DNA of 64,000 bases from an uncultured Verrucomicrobiae bacterium. GTDB lineage: Bacteria > Verrucomicrobiota > Verrucomicrobiia > Limisphaerales > JAFGQR01. The position numbers were made by a program, and so were the translations under genes. The notes beneath the pieces were generated by a model. It did not search any database, was not told where the DNA came from, and saw only the letters and a list, made by a program, of their open reading frames with translations. Location of the stretch: positions 32,001 to 96,000 of the forward strand of contig CAWBHS010000038.1 in NCBI GenBank assembly GCA_963788655.1, written 5' to 3'. Below, one piece after another: positions 1,498 to 40,336 of the stretch; the stretch's first letter is position 1, and the number at the start of each line of letters is the position of its first letter.

Positions 1498-4017
1498 ATG
1501 AATGTTGTGTCGAACCCTGAGGTTGGGAGCGCATCGTCCGGGCTCTTCCACGACTATCTGGCAACGCCCGGTGTCTATGACGAGATGGAAACCGGACCCG
1601 GTTTACCGCGGCCGCACTGGCAGAAATTCCGGGACGCTTTGACTCAGTTTGGCGCGAGTGACATGAACACCCGCTGGAAGGACGCCCGGCGCATGCTCGA
1701 GGAACACGGGGTCACGTACAACGTGTACGCCGACGCCCAGGGCATGGACCGGCCGTGGGAATTTGACTTGGTGCCGCTGCTGATCCCGGCGGCGGAATGG
1801 CGGCAAATCGAGGCGGGGCTGATTCAGCGGGCGCATTTGATGAATACCATCCTGGCGGATTTATACGGTCCGCAACGGTTGCTGCGCGAAGGCCGTTTGC
1901 CACCCGCACTCGTGTACGCCAATCCGGCCTTCCTGCGCGCCTGCCACGGCATCCGGGTTCCGGGCGATGTTTACCTCTTCCGTTACGGTGTGGATCTTGC
2001 CCGCGCGCCGGACGGACAATGGTGGGTGCTGGCGGATCGCACTCAGGCGCCTTCCGGCGCCGGCTACGCGCTGGAGAACCGCTTCGTCATCTCCCGCGTG
2101 CTGCCGGGCCTTTACCGATCCTGTCAGGTGCAACGGCTGGCTACCTTCTTCCAAATGGAACGGGACGCGTTGCGGGGCCTGGCCACGCGCCATCAGGAGA
2201 ATCCGCGAGTGGTACTGCTGACGCCCGGCCCCTACAACGAGACGTACTTCGAACAAGTCTATTTGGCGCGTTACCTGGGATTCACCCTCGTCGAAGGCGC
2301 CGATCTGGCGGTGCGGGACCGGTGTGTGTTCCTGAAGACGCTGGAGGGATTGCAACCGGTGGACGTCATCATCCGGCGGGTGGACGACACGTTTTGTGAT
2401 CCGCTCGAATTGCGGACCGATTCGTTTCTCGGCGTGCCGGGCTTGGTCGATGCCGTGCGGGCCGGAAACGTGGCCGTGGCCAACGCCCTGGGTTCGGGGC
2501 TGGTGGAAACGCCTTCCTTGCCGGCCTTCCTGCCGGGCTTGTGCCGCCACTTGTTGGGCGAAGAACTCAAACTTCCATCGGTGGGCACCTGGTGGTGCGG
2601 CCAGGAGCGTGAATTTCAATATGTGGCCGAACACCTGGACCAGGTGGTGGTCAAACGAGCCTTTGCGTCCTCGTTTGCGGAACCGGTGTTCAGTATAAAA
2701 TTGAAGGCCAGCAAACGCGCCGCGCTGTTGGCCAAATTGCGGGCCTCACCGCTCGAATTTGTCGGCCAGGAACAGGTGGCCCTGTCGCATGCCCCGGTCT
2801 GGACGGGACGCCGGATGGTGTCGCGTCCGGTCGTTTTGCGCGCTTATGTGGCCGCGGTCGGGGATGCTTACGCGGTGCTGCCGGGTGGCCTGGCGCGGGT
2901 GTCCGCCTCGCAACGGGATCCGGTGGTTTCCATGCAGAGCGGCGGCGGTAGCAAGGACACCTGGATTCTGGCCGAAGGACCGGTGCCGATGGTCACGCTG
3001 GTGCCCAGTCTCGCGCAATCCCTCCAATTGGACACCACCGCCGCCGAAGTGCCCAGCCGGGTGGCGGAGAATCTCTATTGGCTGGGCCGTTATGCGGAGC
3101 GTCTGGAAGATACCATGCGCCGGCTGCGGTGTACCATTCGTTACCTGTCCGCCGAAGCCGGTCCGGACGCCACCCCGGAGCGCGCGGCGCTGGTGCGGAT
3201 GCTCGTCTGGCTCGGCCTGCTGCCCGCGCAATTTTGCGAACAAACGCCATTGGCCGAACTCGAAGAGGAAATCATTGCGCTCGTCAATAATGAGGAGCGG
3301 GCCGGCAGCGTACGTTATTTGCTCACCCGGATGCGCCAAATCGCCTTGATTGTCCGTGACCGATTTTCCACGGATTCCTGGCGCATCTTTTTGAAGTTGC
3401 AAACCAGTACCCGGTTGTTGCCCGGCCACGTGCGCTTGCTCGAAGTCCAGGCGCAGCTTAACGCGCTGGTGGTGGATTTGGCCGCGTTCAGCGGCATTGA
3501 AATGGAAAACATGAACCGCGGCCACGGCTGGCGGTTCCTGGACATTGGCCGGCGGTTGGAGCGGGCGCTCGCCATCGCCACCGTGATCCGGGCGGCGCTG
3601 CTCACCGAACCCGGCACCGGCGCGCTGCTGGAACCGCTGTTGATCATCGCCGATAGTGTGATGACGTATCGGCGACGGTTCTTTGCCCAGCCCCAATGGC
3701 CGGCGGTGCTCCTGCTCTTGTTGCTGGAAGAGAAGAATCCGCGCTCCCTCGCGTTCCAGTTGAAGACCCTGGCCGAGCACACCGCCGTGTTGCCCAGTGA
3801 GGCCGGGGCCTTGGGTTTGAGCCGGGAGTTGAAACAGCTTACGACCGCCCAGGAACATCTGCGGCGCATCCGCGTTCAGGACTTGTCGCATCCGCTGGAC
3901 GAGTCCCAGTCCCAACGCCTCGTGGAAACGCTGTTCACGGTGGCTGATGAAATCCGCCGGGTTTCCGACAACTTGGCCGAGCGATACTTTAGCCACACGG
4001 CCGCCCGGGTCAGTTGA
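1498..4017 (+). CDS. circularly permuted ATP-grasp protein fused to alpha-E domain
   Basis: TQAPSGAGYALENR, LTPGPYNETYFEQ, RRVDDTFCDPLEL and GGGSKDTW, followed by PSRVAENLYWLGRYAER. Confidence 0.92.
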   Translation: MNVVSNPEVGSASSGLFHDYLATPGVYDEMETGPGLPRPHWQKFRDALTQFGASDMNTRWKDARRMLEEHGVTYNVYADAQGMDRPWEFDLVPLLIPAAEWRQIEAGLIQRAHLMNTILADLYGPQRLLREGRLPPALVYANPAFLRACHGIRVPGDVYLFRYGVDLARAPDGQWWVLADRTQAPSGAGYALENRFVISRVLPGLYRSCQVQRLATFFQMERDALRGLATRHQENPRVVLLTPGPYNETYFEQVYLARYLGFTLVEGADLAVRDRCVFLKTLEGLQPVDVIIRRVDDTFCDPLELRTDSFLGVPGLVDAVRAGNVAVANALGSGLVETPSLPAFLPGLCRHLLGEELKLPSVGTWWCGQEREFQYVAEHLDQVVVKRAFASSFAEPVFSIKLKASKRAALLAKLRASPLEFVGQEQVALSHAPVWTGRRMVSRPVVLRAYVAAVGDAYAVLPGGLARVSASQRDPVVSMQSGGGSKDTWILAEGPVPMVTLVPSLAQSLQLDTTAAEVPSRVAENLYWLGRYAERLEDTMRRLRCTIRYLSAEAGPDATPERAALVRMLVWLGLLPAQFCEQTPLAELEEEIIALVNNEERAGSVRYLLTRMRQIALIVRDRFSTDSWRIFLKLQTSTRLLPGHVRLLEVQAQLNALVVDLAAFSGIEMENMNRGHGWRFLDIGRRLERALAIATVIRAALLTEPGTGALLEPLLIIADSVMTYRRRFFAQPQWPAVLLLLLLEEKNPRSLAFQLKTLAEHTAVLPSEAGALGLSRELKQLTTAQEHLRRIRVQDLSHPLDESQSQRLVETLFTVADEIRRVSDNLAERYFSHTAARVS

Positions 4018-4032
4018 TTGTCAGATTGGCGT

Positions 4033-4932
4033 ATGCGTTACCAAGTTACCCACCGCACCAGCTACGAGTACGATGACAACGTCACCCTGTCCCAGCACGC
4101 GCTGCGGCTGATTCCCCGCGACCTGCCCCGGCAGCGCCGCTTGCAGCACAATTTCCACTTCACTCCGGAACCGGCCTTGAGCTGGAACCATACGGATTAT
4201 TATGGGAACACGGTCGTTTTCCTGACGCTGGAAAAGGCGCACCGTGGGCTGGAAGTGGTTTCGTTGAGCATGGTGGACGTCGATCCGGTCACTTGGCCGG
4301 AGCCGTCCACCACGCCGCCTTGGGAACAGGTACGGGCTGCTTGCAATGGCCAGGCTGCCACTCCGGAAATTGCGGCCAGCGAATTTGTGTTTGATTCGCC
4401 GCTGCTCCGGCGCTTGCCCCCAGTAGCGGATTACGCCGTTGAATCCTTTGCGCCGGCACGGCCGGTTTTGGAAGCGGTGTTAGAACTGACGCGCCGCATT
4501 CACGGGGATTTTACCTTCGATCCGAAAGCCACCACGGTAGCCACTCCGCTCGACGAAGTGCTGCAATTGCGCCGGGGCGTCTGCCAGGATTTTGCGCACC
4601 TGCAAATTGCCTGTCTGCGCGCGATGGGTGTGCCGGCGCGCTACGTCAGCGGCTACCTGGAAACCCTGCCACCGCCGGGCCAGCCCAAACTGGCCGGCGC
4701 CGACGCTTCCCATGCTTGGTGTTCGTTCTTCTGCCCCGGCTTGGGTTGGATTGACGTGGACCCGACGAACAACCTGCTGCCCTCCGACCGGCATGTCACC
4801 ATCGGCTGGGGACGCGATTACAGCGATGTCAGTCCCATTCGCGGCGTCATCCTGGGGGCCGGTGAACACTCGCTCACTGTGAACGTGGACGTCACGGCGC
4901 TGGAGGACGGAACGCCGGTGACTCAACCATAA
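4033..4932 (+). CDS. transglutaminase family protein with bacterial N-terminal domain
   Basis: YQVTHRTSYEY N-terminus; catalytic motifs GVCQDFAH, ASHAW and DPTN; GRDYSDVSP. Confidence 0.93.
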   Translation: MRYQVTHRTSYEYDDNVTLSQHALRLIPRDLPRQRRLQHNFHFTPEPALSWNHTDYYGNTVVFLTLEKAHRGLEVVSLSMVDVDPVTWPEPSTTPPWEQVRAACNGQAATPEIAASEFVFDSPLLRRLPPVADYAVESFAPARPVLEAVLELTRRIHGDFTFDPKATTVATPLDEVLQLRRGVCQDFAHLQIACLRAMGVPARYVSGYLETLPPPGQPKLAGADASHAWCSFFCPGLGWIDVDPTNNLLPSDRHVTIGWGRDYSDVSPIRGVILGAGEHSLTVNVDVTALEDGTPVTQP

Positions 4933-5036
4933 GCTTCCGTTTGGACTGGCGGGTTGGCCGTAGCGCCAGCGTTTGTCGTGCGCCCGGTTTGTCATTACTT
5001 GCGCGAGGAGAGCGACCGTCCAATGCTCACTCAACC

Positions 5037-6198: not shown

Positions 6199-7044
6199 TC
6201 AAAACACCACGTCGGAATTGGCCGCCAGCCACTCGGTCAAACCCGGCAACCGGAACGGTAGAATTCGTTGAACTTTGGCGCAGTTCAACGAGGTGTCCGG
6301 CGCCCGTTTCGGTCCTTGGTAATCGTGCAGTGACGCGGGCTGTATTTGGAGCTTGAACTGCGGCCAACGCGCGGCGAGCAATCGGCCAATCTGCCACCGC
6401 GAGAGCCGCTCGCTGCCGGCCAAGTGGTACACCCCTGGCTGGCTGGCCGCCACCAGCGCCCAAATCGCTTGCGCCGTCACCACGGCCGGAATGGGGCATC
6501 GGAATTCATCGGTAAACAGCCGCAAGGTTCGCCCCTTCTGCCACGCTTGGCGGAGTTGTTCATTGAAACCCCGATCACCGGTCGTGGAGGTTCCTCCGTT
6601 CAGCGACGTGCGAATGACCGTGTGTTGCGGGTTGGCGAGGACTTTCTGTTCCGCCGCCAGTTTGGTTTCGGCATACACATTGAGCGGATGGGGGCGATCG
6701 TCCTCGTCGTACTCTCCCTGTCGGCCATCAAAAACCAAGTCGGTCGAGAAGAACACGAAGGCCTTATCAATGGCCAAATCCGCCAACAGGGCGGTGACAT
6801 CCACATTCAACACGCGCGCCAGGGCCGGATTCTGTTCACAGGCCACCGTGCGAGTTAGCGCCGCGCAATGAATCACCAAGTCCGGATCGTCCTGTTCGAA
6901 CAAAAGCCGTACCGTCTGATAATCCGTCAAGTCCAACTCCGGGCGCGTCAAACCACGCACCTCCCAGTCGGGGGCATACATCGACGCCGTCCGCACCAGG
7001 TAACTGCCAATCAGGCCGCCCGCGCCGGTGATCCATGCTTTCAT
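6199..7044 (-). CDS. dTDP-4-dehydrorhamnose reductase (RmlD)-like SDR oxidoreductase
   Basis: ITGAGGLIG, HCAA, STDLVFDG and YAETK motifs. Confidence 0.85.
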   Translation of the reverse strand: MKAWITGAGGLIGSYLVRTASMYAPDWEVRGLTRPELDLTDYQTVRLLFEQDDPDLVIHCAALTRTVACEQNPALARVLNVDVTALLADLAIDKAFVFFSTDLVFDGRQGEYDEDDRPHPLNVYAETKLAAEQKVLANPQHTVIRTSLNGGTSTTGDRGFNEQLRQAWQKGRTLRLFTDEFRCPIPAVVTAQAIWALVAASQPGVYHLAGSERLSRWQIGRLLAARWPQFKLQIQPASLHDYQGPKRAPDTSLNCAKVQRILPFRLPGLTEWLAANSDVVF

Positions 7045-7400
7045 TCGTTTTGCGGCCGAAGCTTAAAGGCCAAACCTCGCCCGTCAAGGACAGTGCGAAT
7101 GGGGAGGGTCAGGTGGATTGGACTACTTGAATCGCCGATCGTTCTTGCGCCTCGCCTTAAGGGGGCCGGTTAAGGAGTATTCCCGCATGACCAAAACCCG
7201 TTTTCAAATCGTCAATCCGTTTCGGTCCGAAGATTGTTATTCCCCTGTTTCCGCCTTGGATTTTTGTTCATGGTTGCCGCATTGAATCCGCCCTGGCGGC
7301 AGACACTGACTACGCTATGCACGTCTCCGACGGTTCCGGGGGAGAGTGGAGAACGTAATGATTCAACCCCAAGCTAAAACGCGTTTTTGTTGTACAAACA

Positions 7401-18787: not shown

Positions 18788-18990
18788 CCGCGTTGGGAGT
18801 GCGCCCGGCTTGCCGGCGCTTTTGGTTGGGGAGCGGCGGTCAAATCGTTGCGGGCACGGCCTGCTTCCTAACGCGCGGCGCCTGGCACGAAAGCGGGAGC
18901 AAGCTCCACGCACTCCAAACGCTTCGCGAGGATTGGAAACCACCGACGCGGATTCACATTGGAACATGTAGGACCGGCGCCTCGCCGGTC
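18788..18990. repeat. family B inverted pair plus a family A copy
   Basis: 18788-18823, 18888-18929 and 18968-18990. Confidence 0.75.
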
Positions 18991-19316: not shown

Positions 19317-19400
19317 TTTTCTGCCTATCACGGTAAACGGCAACTTTTTTCTGCCTAATTCTGTTATTCCACCCGTTGGTACGCCTAAACAGCGTTAGGC
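19317..19400 (+). other. attI-like integron recombination site
   Basis: GCCTAAAC-AGC-GTTAGGC simple site (core 19394-19400) with no attC hairpin; upstream direct repeats TTTTCTGCCTA at 19317 and 19347. Confidence 0.65.
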
Positions 19401-19420: not shown

Positions 19421-19867
19421 ATGGACACCATCGCACTCAGCAAATTCGGCCATTCCGAAGAGGAAGCTGCAATTACGTTCATCATAAACGGACGCGACCT
19501 TATCGACATCATCTTCGACCATGGCGGCGTTGCCCTTGGCCTTCCACTTCAGGTGATTTGCCAAGAGGAACGGTTCACAGTATTCAACGACAGGATTTCT
19601 GTTCGTCCTGAGCGCTTGGCAGTGCTTGCATGTGAGCAGGGTTGGTCAGGTGTCACCGCGGCGACCGCTATGGTAAATTGGTCGGACAGCGCCGTTACTT
19701 GGTCAGAGCTTGCGTCAGCGTGGCGAGGCAAGCCCTCGTCGATTCCGCAGATTGGGCCTTTCGAGTTTGACCGCAAGCAATACGAAGGAGTGATGGCGAC
19801 AGGTCGCGAATTAGCCGAGAGTTGGAGAATGTCACATGGCCTTCAGTCCAGTTCCAAAATTGCCTAA
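19421..19867 (+). CDS. cassette 1 hypothetical protein (148 aa)
   Basis: ATG 19421; TAA lies inside GCCTAAC. Confidence 0.75.
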   Translation: MDTIALSKFGHSEEEAAITFIINGRDLIDIIFDHGGVALGLPLQVICQEERFTVFNDRISVRPERLAVLACEQGWSGVTAATAMVNWSDSAVTWSELASAWRGKPSSIPQIGPFEFDRKQYEGVMATGRELAESWRMSHGLQSSSKIA

Positions 19868-19957
19868 CCAATCGAGTCACCGAATGAGCGGCAAGCACGT
19901 CAGTTTTGAATTTGGAAGGCACCGGGATGCCGCTCATCGGTGCTCTCAGCGTTCGCC
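19862..19957 (+). other. attC site 1
   Basis: GCCTAAC..GAG[T]CACCGA[A]TGAGCGGCA / TGCCGCTCATCGGTGCTC..GTTCGCC. Confidence 0.9.
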
Positions 19958-19963
19958 AGCAGT

Positions 19964-20413
19964 ATGATCGCGCTCGATCTTCAGACGTTTGAGCAAAGCC
20001 GTGAAAGCGGCACCGTGACGGGCGTGATCCACGTTGATTTGGAGTCGGGGGCATTTCCAGAGACGGGCTGGTCAGATTTCCCCGTGATCATTCTCAGTTG
20101 GTGGGCCGAGGCATTGCTCCAGTTGGAGACGCCCACGAGGCGCGAGGTGCTGTGGCGATTCATGGACGGCCCGCACAGTCTGACGCTCACAAAGGTGACG
20201 GGCCTCGTTCCAAGTGGCGCGCTGACATTTGGGCGTGTGGAGAGTGGTGTGCTTGAGGCAGCACAGCGCGTCGTCGCATACTGCGAGCAGCACGAGATGT
20301 TCAGCAAAGATTTGGAGACGCTGCGAGAGAATGTCCAGAGACTCAAGGCGAACCAGACGGTGCAGCGAACGGGAGCCAGCCGTTCGCTCACATTGAAATA
20401 CGACCGTCAGTGA
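19964..20413 (+). CDS. cassette 2 hypothetical protein (149 aa; reads into attC2)
   Basis: ATG 19964 just after the core; FPETGWSDFPVIILSWW motif. Confidence 0.75.
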   Translation: MIALDLQTFEQSRESGTVTGVIHVDLESGAFPETGWSDFPVIILSWWAEALLQLETPTRREVLWRFMDGPHSLTLTKVTGLVPSGALTFGRVESGVLEAAQRVVAYCEQHEMFSKDLETLRENVQRLKANQTVQRTGASRSLTLKYDRQ

Positions 20414-20447
20414 CGGCTGGCTCCCGTCGCTGACCTTTACGTTCTGC
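20347..20447 (+). other. attC site 2
   Basis: GGCGAAC..GGT[G]CAGCGA[A]CGGGAGCCAGCCGT / ACGGCTGGCTCCCGTCGCTGACC..GTTCTGC. Confidence 0.9.
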
Positions 20448-21794: not shown

Positions 21795-21866
21795 GAAGAA
21801 CCAATCGTGCGAGCGAGTCCCGACTGCGCTATCGCGCCGTCGGGATCGCTCCACTCGGCGTTCGGC
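21795..21866 (+). other. attC site 3 (short)
   Basis: GAAGAAC..GTG[C]GAGCGA[G]TCCCGAC / GTCGGGATCGCTCCAC..GTTCGGC. Confidence 0.85.
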
Positions 21867-22044: not shown

Positions 22045-23339
22045 GTCGCTGGTAATAAATAAGGGTGGCATGTGCAGGTCGAGTTGGCTATGATGCTCCG
22101 CTATGAGTCATTTGGCGGTGCTCACGCAGAAGTTCAGATCGATTTGGCCACTTCTTGATGAACGAACGCGGCGCATCATGGCGGCGAACGAGGCGATCGG
22201 CCTGGGTTATGGCGGCGTGTCGATCGTTCATCGGGCTTGTGGATTGTCGCGGAAGGCGATTGGCAAGGGAGTCCTCGAAATTCAAACGGGGACATGCCTT
22301 GCGGAAGGGCGCATCCGGCGTGCGGGAGCGGGGCGCAAGACGATCACGGAAACCGATCAGGGTCTGCTGCATGCACTGGAGTAGTTGATTGACTGTGGCA
22401 CGCGCGGTGATCCGGAGTCTCCTTTGCGCTGGATTTGTAAGAGCACGCGGACCATCGCTTTGCAATTGCGCCAGCAGCGGCATCCGATCAGCCATGTGAA
22501 AGTGGCCCAACTCCTCCACGAACAGAACTACAGTCTGCAAAGCAATCGCAAGACCGAGGAAGGCAAGGGTCACCCGGACCGGGATGCGCAGTTCCGCCAT
22601 ATCAACGCGAGTGTTAAAAAATCCTGGCGGCAGGACTGCCGGTTATTTCAGTGGACACCAAGAAGAAAGAACTGATTGGCAACTACGATAATGCCGGTCG
22701 ACAATGGCTGCCTTCCAAACAGCCCATTAAAGTCAGCGGCCATGACTTCCCGAGTCCCGAAGTGCCCCGGGCTTATCCCTATGGCATTTATGACCTGGGA
22801 CGCAATGCCGGCTTTGTGAACATCGGCACCGACCACGACACGGGTGCCTTTGCCGTGGCCTCCATTCGGGGTTGGTGGCGCTTTGAAGGCCGCCATTTGT
22901 ATCCCGCCGCCCGGAAGATTCTCATCACCGCCGACGGCGGTGGCAGCAACGGTTCCCGGCTGCGGCTCTGGAAATGGGAATTGCAACAGTTGGCCGATGA
23001 AACCGGATTGTCGCTTTCCATCTGCCACTTTCCACCCGGCACGAGCAAATGGAACAAGATCGAGCATCGCCTCTTTTCCTTCATCTCCTCGAATTGGCGG
23101 GGTGAGCCGTTGCGGGATTACGAAACCATCGTGAACTTGATTTCCAAGACCACTACGGCCAAGGGATTAAAAGTAACCTGTCGATTGGATCGTCGCAAAT
23201 ATCCCACAGGCCGAAAAGTCTCCAACCAAGAAATGAAGCGGGTGAATGTGAAACGCAATCTGTTCCATGGCGAATGGAACTATGTTATCAAGCCAGGCTC
23301 TCAGAGTCTGAGTTGATACCTTAATTACTTACCGAATAC
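22045..23339 (+). mobile_element. ISAzo13-family insertion sequence (1295 bp)
   Basis: Imperfect terminal IRs GTCGCTGGTAATAAATAAGG / CCTTAATTACTTACCGAATAC; TTA duplicated at 22042-22044 and 23340-23342. Confidence 0.88.
22103..23316 (+). pseudogene. ISAzo13 (Rhodopirellula-type DDE) transposase with an internal TAG and a frameshift
   Basis: LDERTRR, GDPESPLRW, VDTKKKE, ITADGGGSN and PPGTSKWNKIEHRLFS motifs; TAG at 22382-22384; frameshift in the A-run near 22620. Confidence 0.9.
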
Positions 23340-23523: not shown

Positions 23524-23661
23524 GCCCAACAAGGTCACTGGAGCGAACAGCCGCCCCGCTTCGCAGTTAGAGAGTCACGGGCTTCGGCGACGCGCTCTGG
23601 TTGTCGAGCGGCACAGGCGTTATCACGGCGGGGCGGCTGTCGCTCAGTTCTGTCGTTGGGC
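23524..23661 (+). other. attC site 4 (long)
   Basis: GCCCAAC..ACT[G]GAGCGA[A]CAGCCGCCCCG / CGGGGCGGCTGTCGCTCAGT..GTTGGGC. Confidence 0.88.
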
Positions 23662-24020: not shown

Positions 24021-24050
24021 GATGAAGAACAAGCCCAACAAGTGCGATGG

Positions 24051-26223
24051 TCGTGCCGAGACAAGCTCGGGACGTTGGAAGAGGGGTGACACCCCTTGAA
24101 ATTCGTCAATATTACCCAGTGGGTGCGTCCGCGGGTGCGGTCCAATCCCACTCGACCAAAGGCTAGCCACCGGGTCGATAGCGGAACCGAAGTGCGATCG
24201 TCAGCAGACGGTGTGCGAAGCAGAGGGAACGCGAGGGCGCAGGCCGCGGAATTGAACCCCGAAAAATGTATCGTGGTGGTCAGAGAATAAGTCCGGGCAA
24301 CCGGAACGAAAGCCGACAGGGTCCATCGCCTGGAAGGCGGCAGTCCTGTCCGCGTCACGGCGAGCGGGCGGGACCCCACCGAGGTCTGAGAGCGGGGCAT
24401 GCGCTTAGAGGGGTAATCCGGGAACTCGGGAGAACCTCCCGTCTCCTTGGGGAAAACCGCCGGAATCAGGGTGACCGGCACCATCAACACCCTGGCGTTG
24501 GCCGTTGGATGCGGACGGTCAACGAGCCGAACCCGGCGCGAGCCGGACGGAACACGAAAGACAGCGCATCAACCCAAGGTACCGGCAGGGAGCCGCAAGC
24601 GAACCGACCGGGAGGGACGAAGGTAGTCGTAGCAACGCATAGTACCGCTGATTCCGAGGCCGCGAGGCCGACGGATCGGACGCGTGGGGAACCGAGGCCC
24701 AAGGGACCCACGATAAACCCCCAGTGGGAGCGGGAAGGCAATGCCGGGCATGACCTCTGGACCAGGGAACTACCGGAGTGACTTCGAGCGCACCAACGGT
24801 ATCCTCGCGACTGGCCCAGATTGCGGAGCAATCAAAGCGGGAGCCGGCGATGGTGTTCACCACGCTGGCTCATCATTTGGACGAGGACTTTCTCACGGAA
24901 GCCTTTCACCAACTGCGGAAAGACGCCGCGGCGGGCATCGATCAGATGACCGTAGCGGGCTACGAGCCGAACTTGCGGGAAAACATCGCCGAGCTGGTGC
25001 AACGGTTGAAGACCCGGAAATACCGGGCGCAACCGGCCCGGCGGGTGATGATTCCCAAGAGTGACGGCAGCCAGCGCGCGCTGGCGATCCTGGTGCTGGA
25101 AGACAAAATCGTGCAACGGGCGGTAGCGAGCCTGCTGGAAGCGATCTACGAACCCCACTTCTATGGGTTCTCGCATGGCTTTCGGCGCGGGCATAGCGCG
25201 CACGAAGCATTGAGTCGTCTGCGGGACCAGTGTCTGAAGCTGGGCACCAATTGGATTATTGATGCCGACATTGCCAAGTTCTTTGATACCATCGCGCCGG
25301 AGCACTTGCGCACCATCCTCCAAAAGCGCGTCAACGACGGCACCATCCTGCGACTGATTGGGATGTGGCTGCACGTGGGCGTGCTGGAGGGAGAGCAAGT
25401 GATTCGGAGCGAACTGGGCACCCCGCAAGGGGGCGTGATCTCGCCTATCCTGGCAAACATTTTCCTACACACGGTGCTGGACGAGTGGTTCGAAACGGTC
25501 GTGCGACCGCGCATGGGCGGGAACTGCTGGCTGGTGCGGTTTGCGGATGATTTTGTCATGGGTTTTGCGATCAAGACCGACGCGGCGAAAGGGTTTCGGG
25601 TCTTGCCGAAGCGGTTCGATCGGTATGGGCTGACGATCCATCCGGTGAAAAGCCGGCTGGTGCAATTCAGCCGGCCGTTCGGGCGGCACGGCAAAGGCCC
25701 GGGGACGTTCACGTTTCTGGGGTTCGACCACTACTGGGGCAAGACCCTGAAGGGTGGCTGGACGATCAAGCGCAAGACCCACGGGAAACGGCTGCGCCGG
25801 TTCCTGAGCGGGATTCACGAGTGGTGCCGCAGGCACCGCCACGACCCCATCGTGGAGCAATACCGGACCTTGAAGGCCAAACTGCGCGGACACTATGAGT
25901 ATTACGGTGTGCGCGGAAACTTCAAGCTGCTGGAAGTTGCCTATGAACACACCGAACGGGTGTGGAAGCGGTGGTTGAGTCGGCGGAGTTCCAAGCACCG
26001 GCTGAACTGGGAGCAATGGATGGTGCGGTGGCAGGCGATCTGCCCGCTGCCGAAACCGAGGATCGTCCATGAGTTTTGAGGGCGGGCAGCAACGCGTCAT
26101 GCGCCCCGGCTGGGAACGGTCGGGGACACCCACCGGGTGGCGGGTACTGAGGAACCGTGTGAGGGAATGCTTCACGCACGGGTCTGTGGGGGGCGTCGGG
26201 GGCAACCCCGGCTCCTACCCGGC
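24051..26223 (+). mobile_element. group II intron (bacterial class E-like), boundaries +/-1 nt
   Basis: RT ORF; domain V at 26152-26184 (GAACCGTGTGAGG..TTCACGCACGGGTC); domain VI ending CCTACCCGGC; EBS1 hairpin GCCGAC-AGG-GTCCATCG-CCT-GGAAGGC. Confidence 0.9.
24778..26079 (+). CDS. ltrA: group II intron reverse transcriptase/maturase (no endonuclease domain)
   Basis: TLAHHLD, IPKSDG, EDKIVQRA, SHGFR, GTPQGGVISPILANIFLH, RFADD, FTFLGF, LRGHYEYYG and PLPKPRIVH motifs. Confidence 0.96.
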   Translation: MTSSAPTVSSRLAQIAEQSKREPAMVFTTLAHHLDEDFLTEAFHQLRKDAAAGIDQMTVAGYEPNLRENIAELVQRLKTRKYRAQPARRVMIPKSDGSQRALAILVLEDKIVQRAVASLLEAIYEPHFYGFSHGFRRGHSAHEALSRLRDQCLKLGTNWIIDADIAKFFDTIAPEHLRTILQKRVNDGTILRLIGMWLHVGVLEGEQVIRSELGTPQGGVISPILANIFLHTVLDEWFETVVRPRMGGNCWLVRFADDFVMGFAIKTDAAKGFRVLPKRFDRYGLTIHPVKSRLVQFSRPFGRHGKGPGTFTFLGFDHYWGKTLKGGWTIKRKTHGKRLRRFLSGIHEWCRRHRHDPIVEQYRTLKAKLRGHYEYYGVRGNFKLLEVAYEHTERVWKRWLSRRSSKHRLNWEQWMVRWQAICPLPKPRIVHEF

Positions 26224-26323
26224 ACCGAATGACGAGGAGCGCGGTCAGCCGCATGTTCCAAGTCGAGCGCCCTTGGCGCGCTCCTCGTCATCGGTCAGCT
26301 TTGCGTTCGGCGGAAGACGGCGT

Positions 26324-26703: not shown

Positions 26704-26796
26704 GCCGAACAAGCCGGATGCAGTGAACCCCGCGATTGCGCCTTGGTTTCAATCCGGATATCACTGGCGCGGGGTCACTGATCCGGGACGTTCGAC
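26704..26796 (+). other. attC site 6
   Basis: GCCGAAC..GGAT[G]CAGTGA[A]CCCCGCG / CGCGGGGTCACTGATCC..GTTCGAC. Confidence 0.9.
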
Positions 26797-27715: not shown

Positions 27716-27837
27716 GCCGAACAAGCGGGTGGAGCCGCCCCGCCGCCCCGCTTGTCCGTTTGACGCTGGGCGGCAATTCGAGAGTGCCTCGTGCGCTCCA
27801 CCGTTCCTGTCGGCGGCGGTCGCTCACCCCGTTGGCC
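27716..27837 (+). other. attC site 8
   Basis: GCCGAAC..GGGT[G]GAGC..CCGCCGCC / GGCGGCGGTCGCTCACCC..GTTGGCC. Confidence 0.78.
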
Positions 27838-28448: not shown

Positions 28449-28546
28449 GGCCAACAAGGCGGTCCAGCGAACGGGAGCCAGCCGTTCAGTTCAGACACAA
28501 TTCGACCGTCATCGGCGGCTGGCTCCCGTCGCCGACCTCGTTAGAC
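28449..28546 (+). other. attC site 9 (close relative of attC2)
   Basis: GGCCAAC..GGTCCAGCGAACGGGAGCCAGCCG / CGGCTGGCTCCCGTCGCCGACC TC GTTAGAC. Confidence 0.85.
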
Positions 28547-28574: not shown

Positions 28575-28880
28575 ATGGGATGGGGCAGAACTTTACTACT
28601 CGGGGACATTGGCAATCGTTTAGATATTGAAGATACCGAACGTGACATCGCCGCTCTCAGGGAAGAGATTGCCGGTGCCTTTCGGAAGGATATGTCGCAG
28701 GATGATATTATCCGCAAGCTGATCGCCGAGAACTCACAGTTGAAACTCTACTTCGCGTCGCTCGTGCGCTTGCTGACTAGAACGGGAACCATTTCCAGAG
28801 AGGATCTCGCCGCGGTCGTCGCTGCCGTCGATGCTGAAGATGGCCAAGTCGATGGACAGTTTACTGGCAAAATTGTCTAA
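28575..28880 (+). CDS. cassette 10 hypothetical coiled-coil protein (101 aa)
   Basis: AAAGGA RBS; TAA lies inside GTCTAAC, the reverse complement of the leading GTTAGAC. Confidence 0.8.
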   Translation: MGWGRTLLLGDIGNRLDIEDTERDIAALREEIAGAFRKDMSQDDIIRKLIAENSQLKLYFASLVRLLTRTGTISREDLAAVVAAVDAEDGQVDGQFTGKIV

Positions 28881-28907
28881 CCAAACGAGTCACCCAAACT
28901 CAGCGGT
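28875..28907 (+). other. truncated attC site 10
   Basis: GTCTAAC CAAACGAGTCACC resembles the start of attC1, then runs into the cheA stop. Confidence 0.65.
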
Positions 28908-31274
28908 TCACGCGGCGCGGGCCAGGGGGGCGGACTTCAGGCGCACCAGGGTGCTGACATCCAGGATCAGCCCGACCCGGCCATCGCCCATGATCGCGGC
29001 CCCGGCGAGGGCGGGGGATTGCTTGAACATGTCGCCCAGGCTTTTGATGACCACCTCCTGCTTGCCGAGCAACTGATCCACCAACAGGCAGCGCCGTTCG
29101 ACGCCGGTTTCGACCAGCAGGATGATGCCTTGGGTGGGATCGGTCTTGGCGGCGGGCACCCCAAAAAAATCATGGAGCCGCAACAGCGGACTGAGCCGGC
29201 CACGGACATTCACCATTTCCAGGCGGTCGTGCAGGGTCGAAATCATCTCCGGGGTAGGGCGGAAGGATTCGCGCACACTGTAGGTGGGCAGGATGAATCG
29301 CTCCGCGCCGACGCCCACAATGAAGCCGTCGATGATGGCCAGCGTCAGCGGCAGGCTGATGGTAAAGGTCGAGCCCCGGCCCGGGGTGGATTGGATGCTG
29401 ATGGTGCCGCGCAGTTTTTCGATGTTTCGCCGCACCACGTCCATGCCCACCCCGCGTCCGGAAATGTCCGTGACTTGTTCCGCGGTCGAAAAGCCCGGCG
29501 CAAAGATCAGATCGAAAACTTCCTTCTCGGCCAATTGTTCATCCGCTCGCACCAGTCCGCGGTCGCGCGCTTTGGCCAGAATACGCGCTTGGTCCAAACC
29601 CGCACCGTCATCCTGAATTTCCACCATGATGCTGCCGCCTTCGTGAAAGGCGCGCAGGAAAATGGTTCCCTGGGGCCGCTTGCCCTGGGCTTCCCGGCGC
29701 GCCGGCGATTCAATCCCGTGATCGACCGAGTTACGGATCATGTGGACCAATGGATCGGTGAGTTCCTCGGTAATGGTGCGGTCCAGTTCGGTTTCTTCGC
29801 CGCTCATTCGCAACTCGACCTGTTTGTCTTGTTTGGCGGCCAGGTCGCGCACCAACCGGTTCATCTTTTGGAACGTCGGCCGGATTGGGACCATGCGCAG
29901 CGACATGGTGACCTTTTGCAATTCGCGCGTAATTCCCGACAATTGGGCCAGGTTGCGGTTCAACCGCTGGCTCTGGAGGGATTTCAACGCGCCATCCTGG
30001 GCCACCATGGATTGGGCGATCACCAATTCGCCCACCAGATCCATCAAGCTGTCGAGCTTGAAAGTGTCCACCTTGACCACCGCGGTTTCGCTCAGGCGCC
30101 GGTTCGTGGCCGGTTTGGCCGTCGCCACCGGGGCCGGGGGAACCGCCGCCGAATCGGCGGCCGGAAGGTCTGGGCTCGCACTGGCCTGGGAGGCGGTAGG
30201 CGCGGCGGGCGCAGCGATGGCCGGCGTGGGCGCGGGTGCCGTCGTCGATGCTTCCGGAGCGGTGATGACGGCTTTTACCCGTGCCACCAGCGCGTTGGTG
30301 GGAATGATGATGGAGTCGGCATGTCCGGCGCCCAGCGCATTTTGGATTTCGGCGATGAACTGTTTCAGGCAATCGGCGCCTTCGAGGATCACGTCAATGA
30401 TGGGCGAGGTGATGCTCAACTTGTGTTGTCGCGCCAGGTCCAGCAACGATTCCAATTCGTGCGCCAGCCGGTTGACCGGAGTCAACCGCAGAAAACCGGA
30501 GCCGCCTTTGAACGTGTGAAAGGCACGAAAGATCGAGTTGAGCGTGTCCGCATCGACGGGATTGTCCTCGAGGACCAAGACGCCCAGCTCAATGTTCTGC
30601 AAATGCTCTTCGGATTCGGTGACAAACTCCCGCAGCAAATCCGCGTCTTGCTCGAGGTCCAATTCCAACGGCAGGTCGGCAATGGTTTCCGTGCGGGGTG
30701 TTTCGGCCGGCGGAGACGCTTCGGCGGCAGCCACGGCACCGGTTGGCAACTCGGCGGGGAGCGGCTCCGCGGCAGATGACAAACCGGGCGCTTCGGGGGC
30801 ATCGACGGATCCGACCGGGGGTGACGAAGACGTTTCGGAGGTGCTTTCGGCGGCCGACCACGCGGCTGGCATTTCCGGCAACGGCTGCTGGCGCTGCCTC
30901 GCGTCGAGCGCGGTTTGCATCCAAACGTTCCATTCGCGTAGCCAGGCCAGTGACGATTCGTCGAACCGGGCGGTGCGTTCGAAAATACCGTCCACCGTCT
31001 GCCGCGCTTTGCCGATGGCCGACGACAATTCGGACGGGAGCGGATTGGTCTGGCTGAATTCCTCGAGCTGCAACAGCAGATTGTTCAACGGCAGCAACCC
31101 GGCGTCCTTGCCTGGCTCGGCGAACATCAGTTCCATCGCCAGTTGGCGCGTCCATTCGGCCCACGGTTCTCCGGGAGCCGGCGGCGGGTTCTCAGCGGGC
31201 ACTTGGTTCTCCACGGGTGGGGGAACTGGCGCGGACGACGACGGTTTCTTTTTTTGCGGACGAGGTTTCTTCAT
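28908..31274 (-). CDS. cheA: chemotaxis histidine kinase
   Basis: IFRAFHTFKGGSG (Hpt), LMDLVGELVI, HMIRNSVDHG, DDGAG, SGRGVGMDVV, C-terminal CheW-like domain. Confidence 0.95.
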   Translation of the reverse strand: MKKPRPQKKKPSSSAPVPPPVENQVPAENPPPAPGEPWAEWTRQLAMELMFAEPGKDAGLLPLNNLLLQLEEFSQTNPLPSELSSAIGKARQTVDGIFERTARFDESSLAWLREWNVWMQTALDARQRQQPLPEMPAAWSAAESTSETSSSPPVGSVDAPEAPGLSSAAEPLPAELPTGAVAAAEASPPAETPRTETIADLPLELDLEQDADLLREFVTESEEHLQNIELGVLVLEDNPVDADTLNSIFRAFHTFKGGSGFLRLTPVNRLAHELESLLDLARQHKLSITSPIIDVILEGADCLKQFIAEIQNALGAGHADSIIIPTNALVARVKAVITAPEASTTAPAPTPAIAAPAAPTASQASASPDLPAADSAAVPPAPVATAKPATNRRLSETAVVKVDTFKLDSLMDLVGELVIAQSMVAQDGALKSLQSQRLNRNLAQLSGITRELQKVTMSLRMVPIRPTFQKMNRLVRDLAAKQDKQVELRMSGEETELDRTITEELTDPLVHMIRNSVDHGIESPARREAQGKRPQGTIFLRAFHEGGSIMVEIQDDGAGLDQARILAKARDRGLVRADEQLAEKEVFDLIFAPGFSTAEQVTDISGRGVGMDVVRRNIEKLRGTISIQSTPGRGSTFTISLPLTLAIIDGFIVGVGAERFILPTYSVRESFRPTPEMISTLHDRLEMVNVRGRLSPLLRLHDFFGVPAAKTDPTQGIILLVETGVERRCLLVDQLLGKQEVVIKSLGDMFKQSPALAGAAIMGDGRVGLILDVSTLVRLKSAPLARAA

Positions 31275-38462: not shown

Positions 38463-38939
38463 TCAATTCCACAAAGGTTCGCGGGTTAAATGGAGGAGGG
38501 TGAACAAGGTGTTGCGCCGGCTGGCCAGTTCGTCCAATTGTTTCTGTTCGTGCCGGCGGCGCTGCCGGTGATAGTGGCGCTTCTGGCTTTCGATCAATTT
38601 GTCCACCACCGTGCGCGCCTGCCGGGCGGCCAACAGATGCGTAAACGCGCATCGGGCGTTGTTCCGCGCAACATTCAAGGCGTGTTCACTGGCCCGCCGC
38701 CGCCGCTCGACCGTTTGGCAATACGCCTGCAGGTGCGCCAATTTCTCAGCCGCGCCGCCCGCTTCGAGCAACTGGTGCAGTTCCACCCAGCATTCCACCA
38801 ATTCCTGTTGCACCCCATCGAGCTTGGTCCGGGCCTGTTCCTGGGCCTGTAAGGTCCGGCCGTATTCCTGCAGGGCTTCTTGTTCCTGCCGTTCGCGCAG
38901 CGTACGCAAAGCTTGAAGTGATGATTTGAAAGCTTTCAT
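38463..38939 (-). CDS. fliJ: flagellar export protein
   Basis: MKAFKSSLQALRTLRE...EQKQLDELA; downstream of fliI. Confidence 0.85.
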   Translation of the reverse strand: MKAFKSSLQALRTLRERQEQEALQEYGRTLQAQEQARTKLDGVQQELVECWVELHQLLEAGGAAEKLAHLQAYCQTVERRRRASEHALNVARNNARCAFTHLLAARQARTVVDKLIESQKRHYHRQRRRHEQKQLDELASRRNTLFTLLHLTREPLWN

Positions 38940-38958
38940 AGGTCAGGCAAAAAGACGT

Positions 38959-40336
38959 TCATTTTGAATGGGCCGAGGGTTTGGGTGGCGGTGCCGGCGG
39001 CGGCTGCATGGCCGTGGCCAGTAATTCCCAACTGTTGGCCGCCGGCAGCCCTTGTTCGACTGGTTGTCGCAAAAATGTCTCGAGCGTTTGCTGCCAAAAG
39101 ATGGCTTGGTCGATGGCCGGATTGCTCCCCGCCGGATAAGCGCCCGATGTTGATCAAATCCTGGTTCTTCCGATAAATCGCCAACGCTTCGCGGGCGGCG
39201 GAAACGAGTGCCAGTTGCTCGGGATTCCACAGATCGCGGTCCAAACGGCTCACGCTGGCCAACACGTCAATCGCCGGATAATGATTTTGCGTGGCCAACT
39301 CACGCGTCAAGACGATGTGCCCGTCGAGGATCGAGCGGACCGAATCGGCGATCGGATCATTCATGTCGTCCGCTTCAACGAGCACGGTGAACAGACCGGT
39401 AATGGTGCCCGCGCGCCGGTGCCGGCGCGCTCCAGCAATTGCGGCAACAAGGAGAACACGGACGGCGTGTAACCGCGCGTGGCCGGCGGTTCGCCAATCG
39501 CCAGCCCAATCTCGCGTTGGGCCATCGCAAAGCGCGTCACCGAATCCATCATCAGCAGCACGTTCTGCCCTTCGTCGCGGAAATGCTCCGCGATGGCCAT
39601 CGCCAGGAACGCGCCTTTCAACCGCGCCAACGCCGGTTCATTCGACGTGGCCACCACCACCACCGATTTTCGGCGGCCGGCTTCATCCAGATCCTTTTCC
39701 AGAAACTCGCGCACTTCCCGGCCGCGTTCGCCGATGAGCGCAATCACGTTCACGTCCGCCTCGGCCTGGCTGGCCATCATGCCCAGCAAGGTGGACTTGC
39801 CGACGCCGCTGCCGGCAAAAATGCCCAACCGTTGACCGCGCCCGCAGGGCAGGAACGTGTCGATGGCTTTGATGCCGGTGTGAAAAACGTCGCGGATGCG
39901 CTGGCGTTTGAGCGGGTGCGGCGGCGCCAGGTGCAACGAGGCGCGGCGTTCCGTCACCAACGGCCCGAGGTCGTCAAGCGGATGGCCCAAGCCGTCGATC
40001 ACGCGGCCTTTCAAGGCGTCGCCCACCGGCACCCGCAGCGGCCCATCCGACGGCGATGACTTCACTGCCCGGGTGAATTCCGTGCAATTCGCCCAATGGC
40101 ATCAGCAGCAGATGATGATTTCGAAACCCCACCACTTCGGCCAGCATCGATTCACTGTGGCAGGCGGATTCGATGCGGCAGACTTCGCCCACGGCCGCCA
40201 GCGGTCCTTCCGACTCGATGACCAGCCCGGTCAATTGCACGACCCGGCCGCGGTTCTCGAGCGTGCGCGCGGTGCGGGCTCGTTGGAGCAGGTGCTCCAG
40301 GCGTTGGGCGGAATCTTGGGTGGGCAACACGATCAT
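38959..40336 (-). pseudogene. fliI: flagellar ATPase with three single-base frameshifts (real or assembly error)
   Basis: GIFAGSGVGKST, GERGREVREF, DSVTRFA, GEPP and SILDGHI motifs spread over several frames; shifts near 40045, 39410 and 39145. Confidence 0.9.

Follow-up and report, generated by a model that had tools for sequence, protein, structure and literature searches.

Three target specificities were listed for group II introns in a 2015 review, namely homing sites, terminators and attC sites (PMC4424553). According to the same review, homing occurs in all lineages but class C, and insertion into attC sites belongs to a smaller fraction of the group IIC introns (PMC4424553). Thus the review gives attC targeting to class C alone, and later work has added only non-IIC introns or fragments near cassettes (PMC4424553; PMC7923331) and one unusual IIC intron within an attC site's top strand (PMC7923331). 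In the full-text literature on group II introns and attC sites or integrons, a coverage that leaves out the supplementary figures of PMC7923331, we found no report of a class E or any other non-IIC lineage homing into attC sites.

Here we describe a group II intron that lies inside an attC-like site in a 64,000-nucleotide (nt) stretch of DNA from an uncultured Verrucomicrobiae bacterium (contig CAWBHS010000038.1, positions 32,001 to 96,000; hereafter the window). From Rfam and protein family matches, the complete intron occupies 24051-26223 of the plus strand (2173 nt), and it is the only copy in the window. We consider it probable that this is a full-length, mobile, endonuclease-less class E-type group II intron with IIB-like RNA, belonging to a sub-lineage that retrohomes into integron attC sites. 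Homing into attC is already known for group II introns; what our data support is the same habit in a class E-type lineage, which differs in the strand, in the position and in the recognition element used. The insertion point is shared by relatives from other bacteria, and therefore, if this account is right, group II introns would have come to target integron sites on at least two independent occasions. These relatives come from a scan of a genome collection with 597 matching stretches; 266 of them were confirmed to be related, and the best 80 were retained as loci (L001 and so on).

Position of the intron within a split attC site

The attC-like sites were called by a rule-based detector that asks for an R'' box, a spacer of 9-12 nt, a stem with one bulge on its left arm, a second spacer of 5-12 nt and an R' box with at least 5 of its 7 positions complementary to R''. 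This detector is narrow and tuned to the site family of the window; it was used in place of a covariance model, which was dropped because the MAFFT alignment of five sites was too poor. All six intact sites that it found in the window are on the plus strand; the minus strand gave no site, and neither did any of 20 shuffled versions of the window. The site obtained by joining the two flanks of the intron (24050|26224) also passed.

An earlier note on this DNA, made from the letters alone, had claimed that excision of 24051-26223 rebuilds an attC site, and we observed that it does: the joined site (24033-24050 plus 26224-26311) folds as DNA into a hairpin of about 20 bp with one bulged A and a free energy of −28.4 kcal/mol. 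Its R'' box, GCCCAAC (24033-24039), fits RYYYAAC and pairs with R' at six of seven positions. It is followed by an 11-nt spacer towards the main stem (24040-24050), the last six bases of which, CGATGG (24045-24050), are the end of the 5' exon and serve as intron-binding site 1 (IBS1), pairing at all six positions with exon-binding site 1 (EBS1) of the intron. The 3' part of the site (26224-26311) holds the L'' arm (26224-26243) with a bulged A at 26228/9, a loop, the L' arm (26277-26296), a spacer and the R' box GTTCGGC (26305-26311). The L'' arm, ACCGA[A]TGACGAGGAGCGCG, pairs with the L' arm, CGCGCTCCTCGTCATCGGTC, and the two include a 15-nt perfect inverted repeat. The intron sits at the foot of the L''/L' stem, 10-11 nt past R'' and 5 nt before the conserved bulged A. 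The earlier note had also set an extrahelical G beside the cut; such a G is predicted for the site type represented by 23524-23661 and L001, and in the window's own site its presence depends on the fold. As that note had stated, the intron occupies the top strand and runs in the direction of the open reading frames (ORFs) of the cassettes; all the attC-like sites are on that strand, too.

The consensus for group II intron ends is GUGYG...AY (PMC7923331); the intron in the window has UCGUG (24051-24055) and ...GGC instead, and these ends are conserved within its clade. All six relatives whose 5' end is available begin TCGYGCCGAG, so that TCGYG is kept in 6/6, and all nine whose 3' end is available finish in CTACCCGGC. 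The close relatives share the segment TCGYGCC...CTACCCGGC and diverge outside it, the base preceding the first T being g or c. A paralogous empty site could also be compared. The intact site at 23524-23661 (plus strand; detector and fold), which is of the same type as those occupied in L001 and L002, reads GCCCAAC-AAGGTCACTGG AGCGAACAGCCGCCCCGC. The joined flanks of L001 read GGCTAAC-AAGATCACTGG|AGCGAACAGCCGCCCCGC and are equal to it base for base across the junction (CACTGG|AGCGAACAGCCGCCCCGC). Because of this match the insert is exactly TCGTG...CCCGGC, and therefore the intron begins with UCGUG and ends with GGC.

Two other junctions were considered and rejected. A start at GTGCG (24042), which would have spoken against the earlier note, is ruled out because T24051 is where the homology among the relatives begins, the base before it (24050) being either g or c. 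A start at GTGCC (24053) with an end at ...GGCAC (26225) is ruled out because the site joined in this way mismatches the intact paralogue at 23524-23661, and because IBS1 would then not abut the intron.

Target pairing and the insertion sites of the relatives

The EBS1 hairpin lies at 24318-24331 of the plus strand. It reads directly as AGG-GTCCATCG (24321-24328)-CCT, with the stem formed by AGG (24318-24320) and CCU (24329-24331), the loop being GUCCAUCG and EBS1 itself being 24323-24328. The earlier note had pointed out that GCGATGG (24044-24050) has its exact complement, CCATCGC, at 24323-24329, and both can be read at these positions. As a pairing, six of these seven base pairs (CGAUGG/CCAUCG) are conserved, and the seventh, G24044-C24329, is not kept in the relatives.

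We aligned the first 740 nt, covering domain I, of seven introns and performed a blind scan over the five with a known exon (window, L001, L003, L007 and L019), in which every alignment column was compared with every 5' exon offset for segments that pair in all five. It returned a single element, the loop at 24323-24328, which pairs with the exon's final six bases, with 30/30 pairs over the five introns and four types of IBS1. These IBS1/EBS1 pairs are CGAUGG/CCAUCG in the window, CACUGG/CCAGUG in L001 and L019 (and, by inspection, in L002), CGCUGC/GCAGUG with one G.U in L003, and GGCUCC/GGAGCU with one G.U in L007. Thus EBS1 changes in step with the attC subtype. When the resident EBS1 was compared with the seven attC-like sites of the window, it matched at 6/6 positions only the site that is occupied, and the six intact ones at 3-5 of 6.

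Just 5' of EBS1, U24322 is invariant in 7/7 sequences and could pair with the first base of the 3' exon, which is A in 9/10. This is compatible with a delta- or EBS3-type pair; being invariant, the U:A combination is uninformative. Pairing of the +2 base with the loop base 5' of EBS1 was seen in only 2/5 introns.

We next considered where the relatives are inserted. The closest ones are L001, L002 and L009 (85-86% amino acid identity) and L003-L007 and L019 (68-73%); L008 (60%) is a fragment with the ORF only. Their hosts are metagenome-assembled genomes (MAGs) of Verrucomicrobiota and Acidobacteriota. In the close set of ten, the window counted, eight have attC-type flanks, the other two being L004 and L005. 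All five complete insertions (window, L001, L002, L003 and L007) rebuild hairpins with R''/R' ends, and in each the junction falls 10-11 nt after R'', at or 1 nt past a G that is predicted to bulge, with the conserved bulged A following 5-6 nt later. The same position is found in L019, which retains a 5' attC half (GGCTAAC-N11); L006 and L009 retain 3' halves. What the earlier note had proposed to look for in homologues, attC sites split at the same place with covariation of EBS1 and IBS1, is seen in these loci. Two or three further intact attC-like sites, on the strand of the intron, are carried by each of L006, L007 and L009. Over the 80 loci the detector matched only these three and the distant L037, and 76/80 gave no match.

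Three of these loci carry features of their own. The L006 intron is interrupted in its 5' part by a transposase gene of the ISL3 family (3705-4976). The reverse transcriptase (RT) of L009 has an internal deletion of ~540 nt (about 615-625). L037 is a long-branch relative (42% amino acid identity) from a Verrucomicrobiales MAG, in which the intron is followed by an ORF with a signal peptide and then by the attC-like site (6969-7099).

It could be argued that a single ancient insertion into an attC site was spread by cassette exchange and vertical descent, with no real specificity for attC on the part of the intron. The window and L009 do belong to one attC subtype, with 3' flanks that can be aligned along the entire 3' part of the site, up to 26312 (89% over 25926-26312, the 3' end of the intron included), as one inherited event would leave them; L001 and L002 also share a subtype. 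However, the close set covers at least five attC subtypes and four IBS1 sequences, each with a changed and matching EBS1, and the position relative to R'' and to the bulged A stays constant while the surrounding sequence differs. L001 and L002, moreover, follow different cassettes. Several independent insertions are needed because the upstream regions of L001 and L002 differ and because five site subtypes occur overall in the close set. We therefore regard hitch-hiking from one event as quite improbable, and retrohoming into attC sites as the better account of these insertions.

Outside the clade the insertion sites are different. The outgroups L010, L012, L021, L031, L047, L052 and L073 are at non-attC sites, as are the distant relatives generally (41-52% amino acid identity), and the multi-copy families at 41-49% identity are ~1940 nt long and have unrelated flanks. 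In L031 and L047, GTGCG follows directly after an IBS1 that matches the intron's own EBS1 loop. In L010 (52%), EBS1 CUUAAU matches the exon AUUAAG, and the intron is located 3' of an AT-rich inverted repeat that is not an attC site.

Two of the multi-copy families lie in recurrent surroundings of another kind. L031, L032, L034, L035 and L038, all from one MAG (at ~4440-4475 in each), are 43%-identical class E-type copies lying antisense to GGAGA-N5-7-ATG of different genes. Their IBS1, UUCUCC, is the complement of the Shine-Dalgarno sequence. In 4/5 of these copies ORFs of 153-283 amino acids start at that ATG, and in L035 the nearest ATG gives 2 amino acids. From its sequences this family looks as though it homes to ribosome-binding sites from the opposite strand. 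In a Terriglobia MAG, most of the eight copies L047, L049-L051 and L055-L058 are situated just 3' of related GC-rich hairpins, the flank of L058 looking different. Hairpin-adjacent insertion is usually described for class C.

Class of the reverse transcriptase and the ribozyme core

The intron encodes an RT/maturase of 433 amino acids (24778-26079, plus strand) with the FADD motif, an RVT_1 match at residues 92-316 (1e-31) and a weak GIIM match at 340-412. For the NCBIfam model TIGR04416 ('group II intron RT/maturase') it scores 323 bits, above the cut-off of 300. The protein ends shortly after the X domain and has no room for a DNA-binding/endonuclease (D/En) domain; the earlier note, which had described it as lacking an endonuclease, was right on this point.

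For the phylogeny we used as references Ni.ha.I1 (g3) and Sr.me.I2 (g1), whose coordinates are given in PMC3552965 (Table S2), a class D intron of Bacillus pseudofirmus (Table S1, PMC3552965), RmInt1 (class D) and S.me.I4, a disrupted intron on pRmeGR4b that is called class E in PMC5894124 and was located through the statement in that paper and the plasmid annotation. A quick tree had 65 rows (59 loci, the window and five references) and left out 21 of 81 proteins, which were shorter than 380 amino acids or identical over the last 300 residues; a careful tree had 29 hand-chosen rows. In the latter, the seven RTs of the window type group together as a clade (support 100/100), which L008 joins next (99/97), followed by L010 and L011 (100/99). 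The class E reference and all 23 loci of that tree form a clade with 98/97 support, to which class D (plus L071) is sister. The class E label thus refers to one fragmentary reference (318 amino acids), in a tree that has no rows for class C, g2, ML or CL.

Pairwise comparisons agreed with the tree. With S.me.I4 the window RT shares 46% identity (residues 27-392), as compared with 30-34% for the D, g1 and g3 references, and by phmmer it scores 276 bits against the S.me.I4 fragment, versus 146, 138, 128 and 124 bits against the references of these three classes. Among solved RTs it scores 158 bits against 7uim (which we take to be a IIC ribonucleoprotein), 114 against GsI-IIC, 118 against LtrA and 100 against 6me0, the class C comparators being Protein Data Bank chains only. 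The RNA points the same way. The core of domain I (24142-24394, plus strand) matches RF02005 (group-II-D1D4-6) with 74 bits against a gathering score of 49, and S.me.I4 (145 bits) and each of the eight relatives compared match this family as well; both class D references match RF01999, the g3 reference matches RF02003, and the g1 reference matches none of these. The cmscan alignment places in domain I a 33-nt extra hairpin (24279-24311) just 5' of the EBS1 stem, which is an insertion relative to RF02005, and the RF02005 match is 253-255 nt long in the attC clade and L010 versus 221-241 nt in the other relatives. Sequence data thus support placing the RT and domain I of this intron beside the class E reference and apart from D, g1, g3 and the solved IIC RTs. 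This agrees with the placement outside class C made in the earlier note, one argument of which has to be dropped: FADD, said to mark g2 (PMC3552965), had been taken there as a hint of class, and since both FADD and YADD occur inside the attC clade the motif is not diagnostic.

The same comparisons bear on whether this intron simply belongs to the group IIC-attC lineage already described. In favour of this are its place within an attC site and the fact that no EBS2 was found; the lack of EBS2 resembles IIC introns. However, its RT and domain I group with class E, and solved IIC-type RTs score no more than 114-158 bits. Its EBS1 is 6 nt long, and the hairpin is 3' of the insertion point and not 5'. 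Judged by the class C chains compared, its intron-encoded protein falls outside class C, to which those of group IIC-attC introns belong. Finally, it is on the top strand and co-oriented with the cassettes, whereas IIC-attC introns are on the bottom strand and opposite to them (PMC3001079). We give membership of that lineage practically no weight and treat the intron as class E-type.

The 3' end of the ribozyme was also analysed. RF00029, which covers domains V and VI (DV and DVI), matches 26150-26223 and ends exactly at 26223, with 37.6 bits, just below the gathering score of 40. From this alignment DV is at 26152-26185 (GAACCG...CGGGUC, with 'AAC' in the triad), and DVI at 26184-26223, with a bulged A26217 that is 7 nt from the 3' end (...CCCGGC). 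In nine related sequences, 8 of the 26 predicted pairs of DV and DVI have changes on both sides, so that DV has compensatory changes and the DVI stem is kept with double changes. The unpaired A of DVI (alignment column 86) is present in 9/9. GAACCG is also present in the DV of 9/9 clade sequences, with A as the middle triad base and G or A opposite to it. The AGC catalytic triad of mobile group II introns is hence replaced by 'AAC' in the window intron and its clade. In the 12 class E-type rows in view, S.me.I4 included, among 14 distant sequences printed, DV reads GAGCCG...CGG(A/U)UC; L012 has no such motif in the printed stretch, and the DV of RmInt1 (class D) has GAGCGG. The purine-purine pair of the triad looks flipped in the attC clade, A.G versus G.A in the distant relatives. 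The odd 5' start and the DV 'AAC' are common to the attC clade and the outgroup L010, which begins TCACG, the ends of the two together being 5'-UC(G/A)(U/C)G and ...GGC/GGA-3'; the distant class E-type relatives have GUGCG directly after IBS1 and 3' ends of the ...GAC type.

Such departures raise the question of whether catalysis has been lost, in the window copy or throughout the clade, leaving a relic that no longer splices or moves. UCGUG...GGC and 'AAC' in place of GUGYG...AY and AGC, an RF00029 score below threshold, an L006 copy cut by an insertion sequence and an L009 copy with a deleted RT would all fit. Against this, the odd features are conserved over copies that are 68-86% identical and have intact ORFs of 431-441 amino acids, and the helices of DV and DVI are kept through double changes (8/26 pairs). 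EBS1 has been adapted to new sites, and for this the introns must have been mobile after the appearance of the odd ends, which L010 shares. Thousands of close homologues occur on contigs of ~2 kb, as expected for repeated active elements. From these sequences, the odd features kept in copies with intact ORFs, together with an EBS1 retuned after they arose, would argue for activity. We therefore think it unlikely that the elements are relics, and continue with the reading of a mobile intron.

The cassette array, a proposed mechanism and comparison with known systems

The array consists of seven tandem, co-oriented attC-like sites, the split one included, that extend over about 19.8-28.5 kb and separate small plus-strand ORFs. 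In addition to the sites described above, the detector found intact ones at 19862-19957, 20347-20447, 21795-21866 (with one stem mismatch), 26704-26796 and 28449-28546, the last being the final clear one before the chemotaxis and flagellar genes. The ORFs between the sites have no Pfam match except for one transposase fragment. The palindromes are imperfect and 72-138 nt long, with RYYYAAC starts, GTT-type heptamer ends and extra bases on the R''/L'' arm; in several of them position 4 of R' is C, where R is expected from GTTRRRY. As far as the window shows, the array is a cluster of attC sites lacking an integrase (CALIN).

One may ask whether these repeats belong instead to some other palindromic family, into which the intron simply homes as into any repeated sequence. 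The absence of IntI from the window and the examined flanks, the frequent C at position 4 of R' and a detector built on this very family would be in keeping with that. On the other hand, the RYYYAAC...GTTRRRY-type ends, an imperfect palindrome of about 70-140 nt, bulges confined to the R''/L'' arm and a single orientation are all attC-like. Small ORFs without Pfam matches precede the sites, which form an array, site types are shared across phyla as expected of exchanged cassettes, and integrase-less arrays (CALINs) are a recognised category (PMC7923331). A non-integron repeat family thus appears improbable to us, and we retain integron attC sites as the target.

Several other features of the region are recorded here. 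Between two of the attC-like sites, 22651-23316 encodes a DDE_Tnp_ISAZ013 transposase truncated at its N-terminus (profile positions 94-308 of 308). A 33-nt imperfect inverted repeat with GTTGGGA...TCCAAAC ends is found at 18790-18922, immediately upstream of the first cassettes, and 19353-19400 holds a 48-nt GCCTAAT...GTTAGGC hairpin that fails the detector; the two may mark the start of the array. The numbers 5 and 6 given to the adjoining cassettes in the earlier note depend on how this start is counted. At the other end, R''-like starts without a clean partner arm at 27716-27800 and 28876-28910 (GCCGAAC..., TGTCTAAC...) may be degenerate or truncated attC sites. Further downstream, the gene for the flagellar ATPase FliI (38936-40065, minus strand) is split into the overlapping ORFs 39361-40065 and 38936-39385, which is either a frameshift or a sequencing error. 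Among the proteins of the window, BamA has its best named relative (62% identity) in a Verrucomicrobia MAG.

The above results are consistent with the following mechanism. The ribonucleoprotein would reverse-splice into the top strand of attC, its exact position being set by the EBS1/IBS1 pairing and the U:A at +1. Because no EBS2 was found, we propose that the remaining specificity would come from protein or structure contacts with R'', the CGA[A] motif and the hairpin. There being no endonuclease, cDNA synthesis would be primed from the replication fork; endonuclease-less introns reverse-splice into DNA and use replication-fork primers (PMC4424553; PMC5894124). Once inserted, the intron would put 2.2 kb between R'' and L''-L'-R', and the bottom-strand hairpin could then not form its R box. 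attC sites recombine as folded bottom strands, and the pairing of R'' with R' and of L'' with L' is required. With 2.2 kb between R'' and L'' the site would therefore be disabled, and the two adjoining cassettes would move only as one intron-carrying unit. As the intron is co-oriented with the array, it should be removable by splicing from any array transcript. More speculatively, the attack of the intron may take place on the lagging-strand template, at the folded top strand, an arrangement that the orientation rule for arrays would favour.

A number of points weigh against this interpretation. The ends of the intron (UCGUG...GGC) and the DV 'AAC' are off consensus and RF00029 is below its gathering threshold, so that catalytic competence is not assured. 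No EBS2 was found among domain I segments of at least 5 nt at a fixed offset or at least 6 nt at any offset, up to 18 nt upstream of IBS1 and pairing in at least 4/5 introns, so that the base pairing seen here would account for only the smaller part of the target recognition. No integron integrase is present in the window (no Phage_integrase match in 66 ORFs scanned) or in the flanks of L004-L007 and L019 (27 ORFs), where one 867-amino-acid protein of L005 gave a weak Phage_integrase match; because of this, the name attC is given here on sequence and structure, and the detector is tailored to this site family. L004 and L005, which are within the clade, have 3' flanks that are not clearly attC, and their contigs start inside the intron, leaving the 5' flanks off the contig. 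Ten close relatives were examined out of thousands of similar proteins. The GC skew of the window gives no replication direction. Transcription, splicing, mobility, the block to recombination and the fusion of cassettes are what we infer from these sequences.

A more extended picture can be drawn, which we offer tentatively and with less than even confidence. The intron would represent a widespread environmental lineage, derived from class E and re-specialised on the folded, non-recombinogenic top strand of attC. A retunable 6-nt EBS1 would read the weakly paired spacer and the foot of L'', and protein or structure would read the hairpin. The core would have been rewired, with UC ahead of a GUGCC start, a ...GGC end and, in DV, A.G for G.A or G.U. 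Such an intron would lock neighbouring cassettes together in a reversible manner and would travel between phyla by way of cassette exchange.

If the attC-homing account is true, a second, unrelated lineage has settled on the same recombination site, using the other strand, another position and an EBS1 of normal length, which would be a case of convergent targeting of structured DNA. The relatives would provide a natural series of EBS1/attC pairs for studying how endonuclease-less introns choose structured single-stranded targets. They also suggest a route by which the cassettes of Verrucomicrobiota and Acidobacteriota arrays may become fused or frozen, with introns spreading along with the cassettes. 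As for the ribozyme core, the conserved departures from GUGYG...AY and AGC are relevant to the question of which of its parts cannot be dispensed with.

The nearest described systems each share some of these properties. RmInt1 of Sinorhizobium meliloti (class D) also has an RT/maturase without an endonuclease and is the model of fork-primed retrohoming (PMC5894124; PMC4424553), whereas it is 30% identical to the window RT, matches RF01999 and not RF02005, and homes into an insertion sequence element and not into attC. The class E intron S.me.I4 has the closest RT, and the RF02005-type domain I and the lack of an endonuclease domain are common to the two. Within the class E-type introns, the window clade stands apart by UCGUG...GGC and the DV 'AAC', as against GUGCG and AGC in the other relatives. 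Two class E fragments in a CALIN were reported by Sonbol and Siam in 2021; these are 5'-truncated, and no target rule was derived from them (PMC7923331), whereas the window clade comprises complete copies with a defined insertion point, EBS1 covariation and a dedicated clade. UHB.I2 (CL1/IIB1), from a soda-lake cassette array, is likewise non-IIC and co-oriented and has non-consensus ends (UUGCG..GU); unlike the window intron it is just downstream of an attC site and not inside, the exons of its relatives are poorly conserved and its RT is of a different class (PMC7923331).

The group IIC-attC introns, such as S.ma.I2 and Kl.pn.I3, are the closest in habit, being likewise endonuclease-less, site-specific in attC and a monophyletic sub-lineage (PMC3001079; PMC4424553). 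They are, however, of class C and occupy the bottom strand, opposite to cassette transcription (PMC3001079), and they use the folded attC as an upstream stem-loop (PMC7923331), whereas the intron described here is class E-like, occupies the top strand in the orientation of the cassettes and enters 5' of the main stem.

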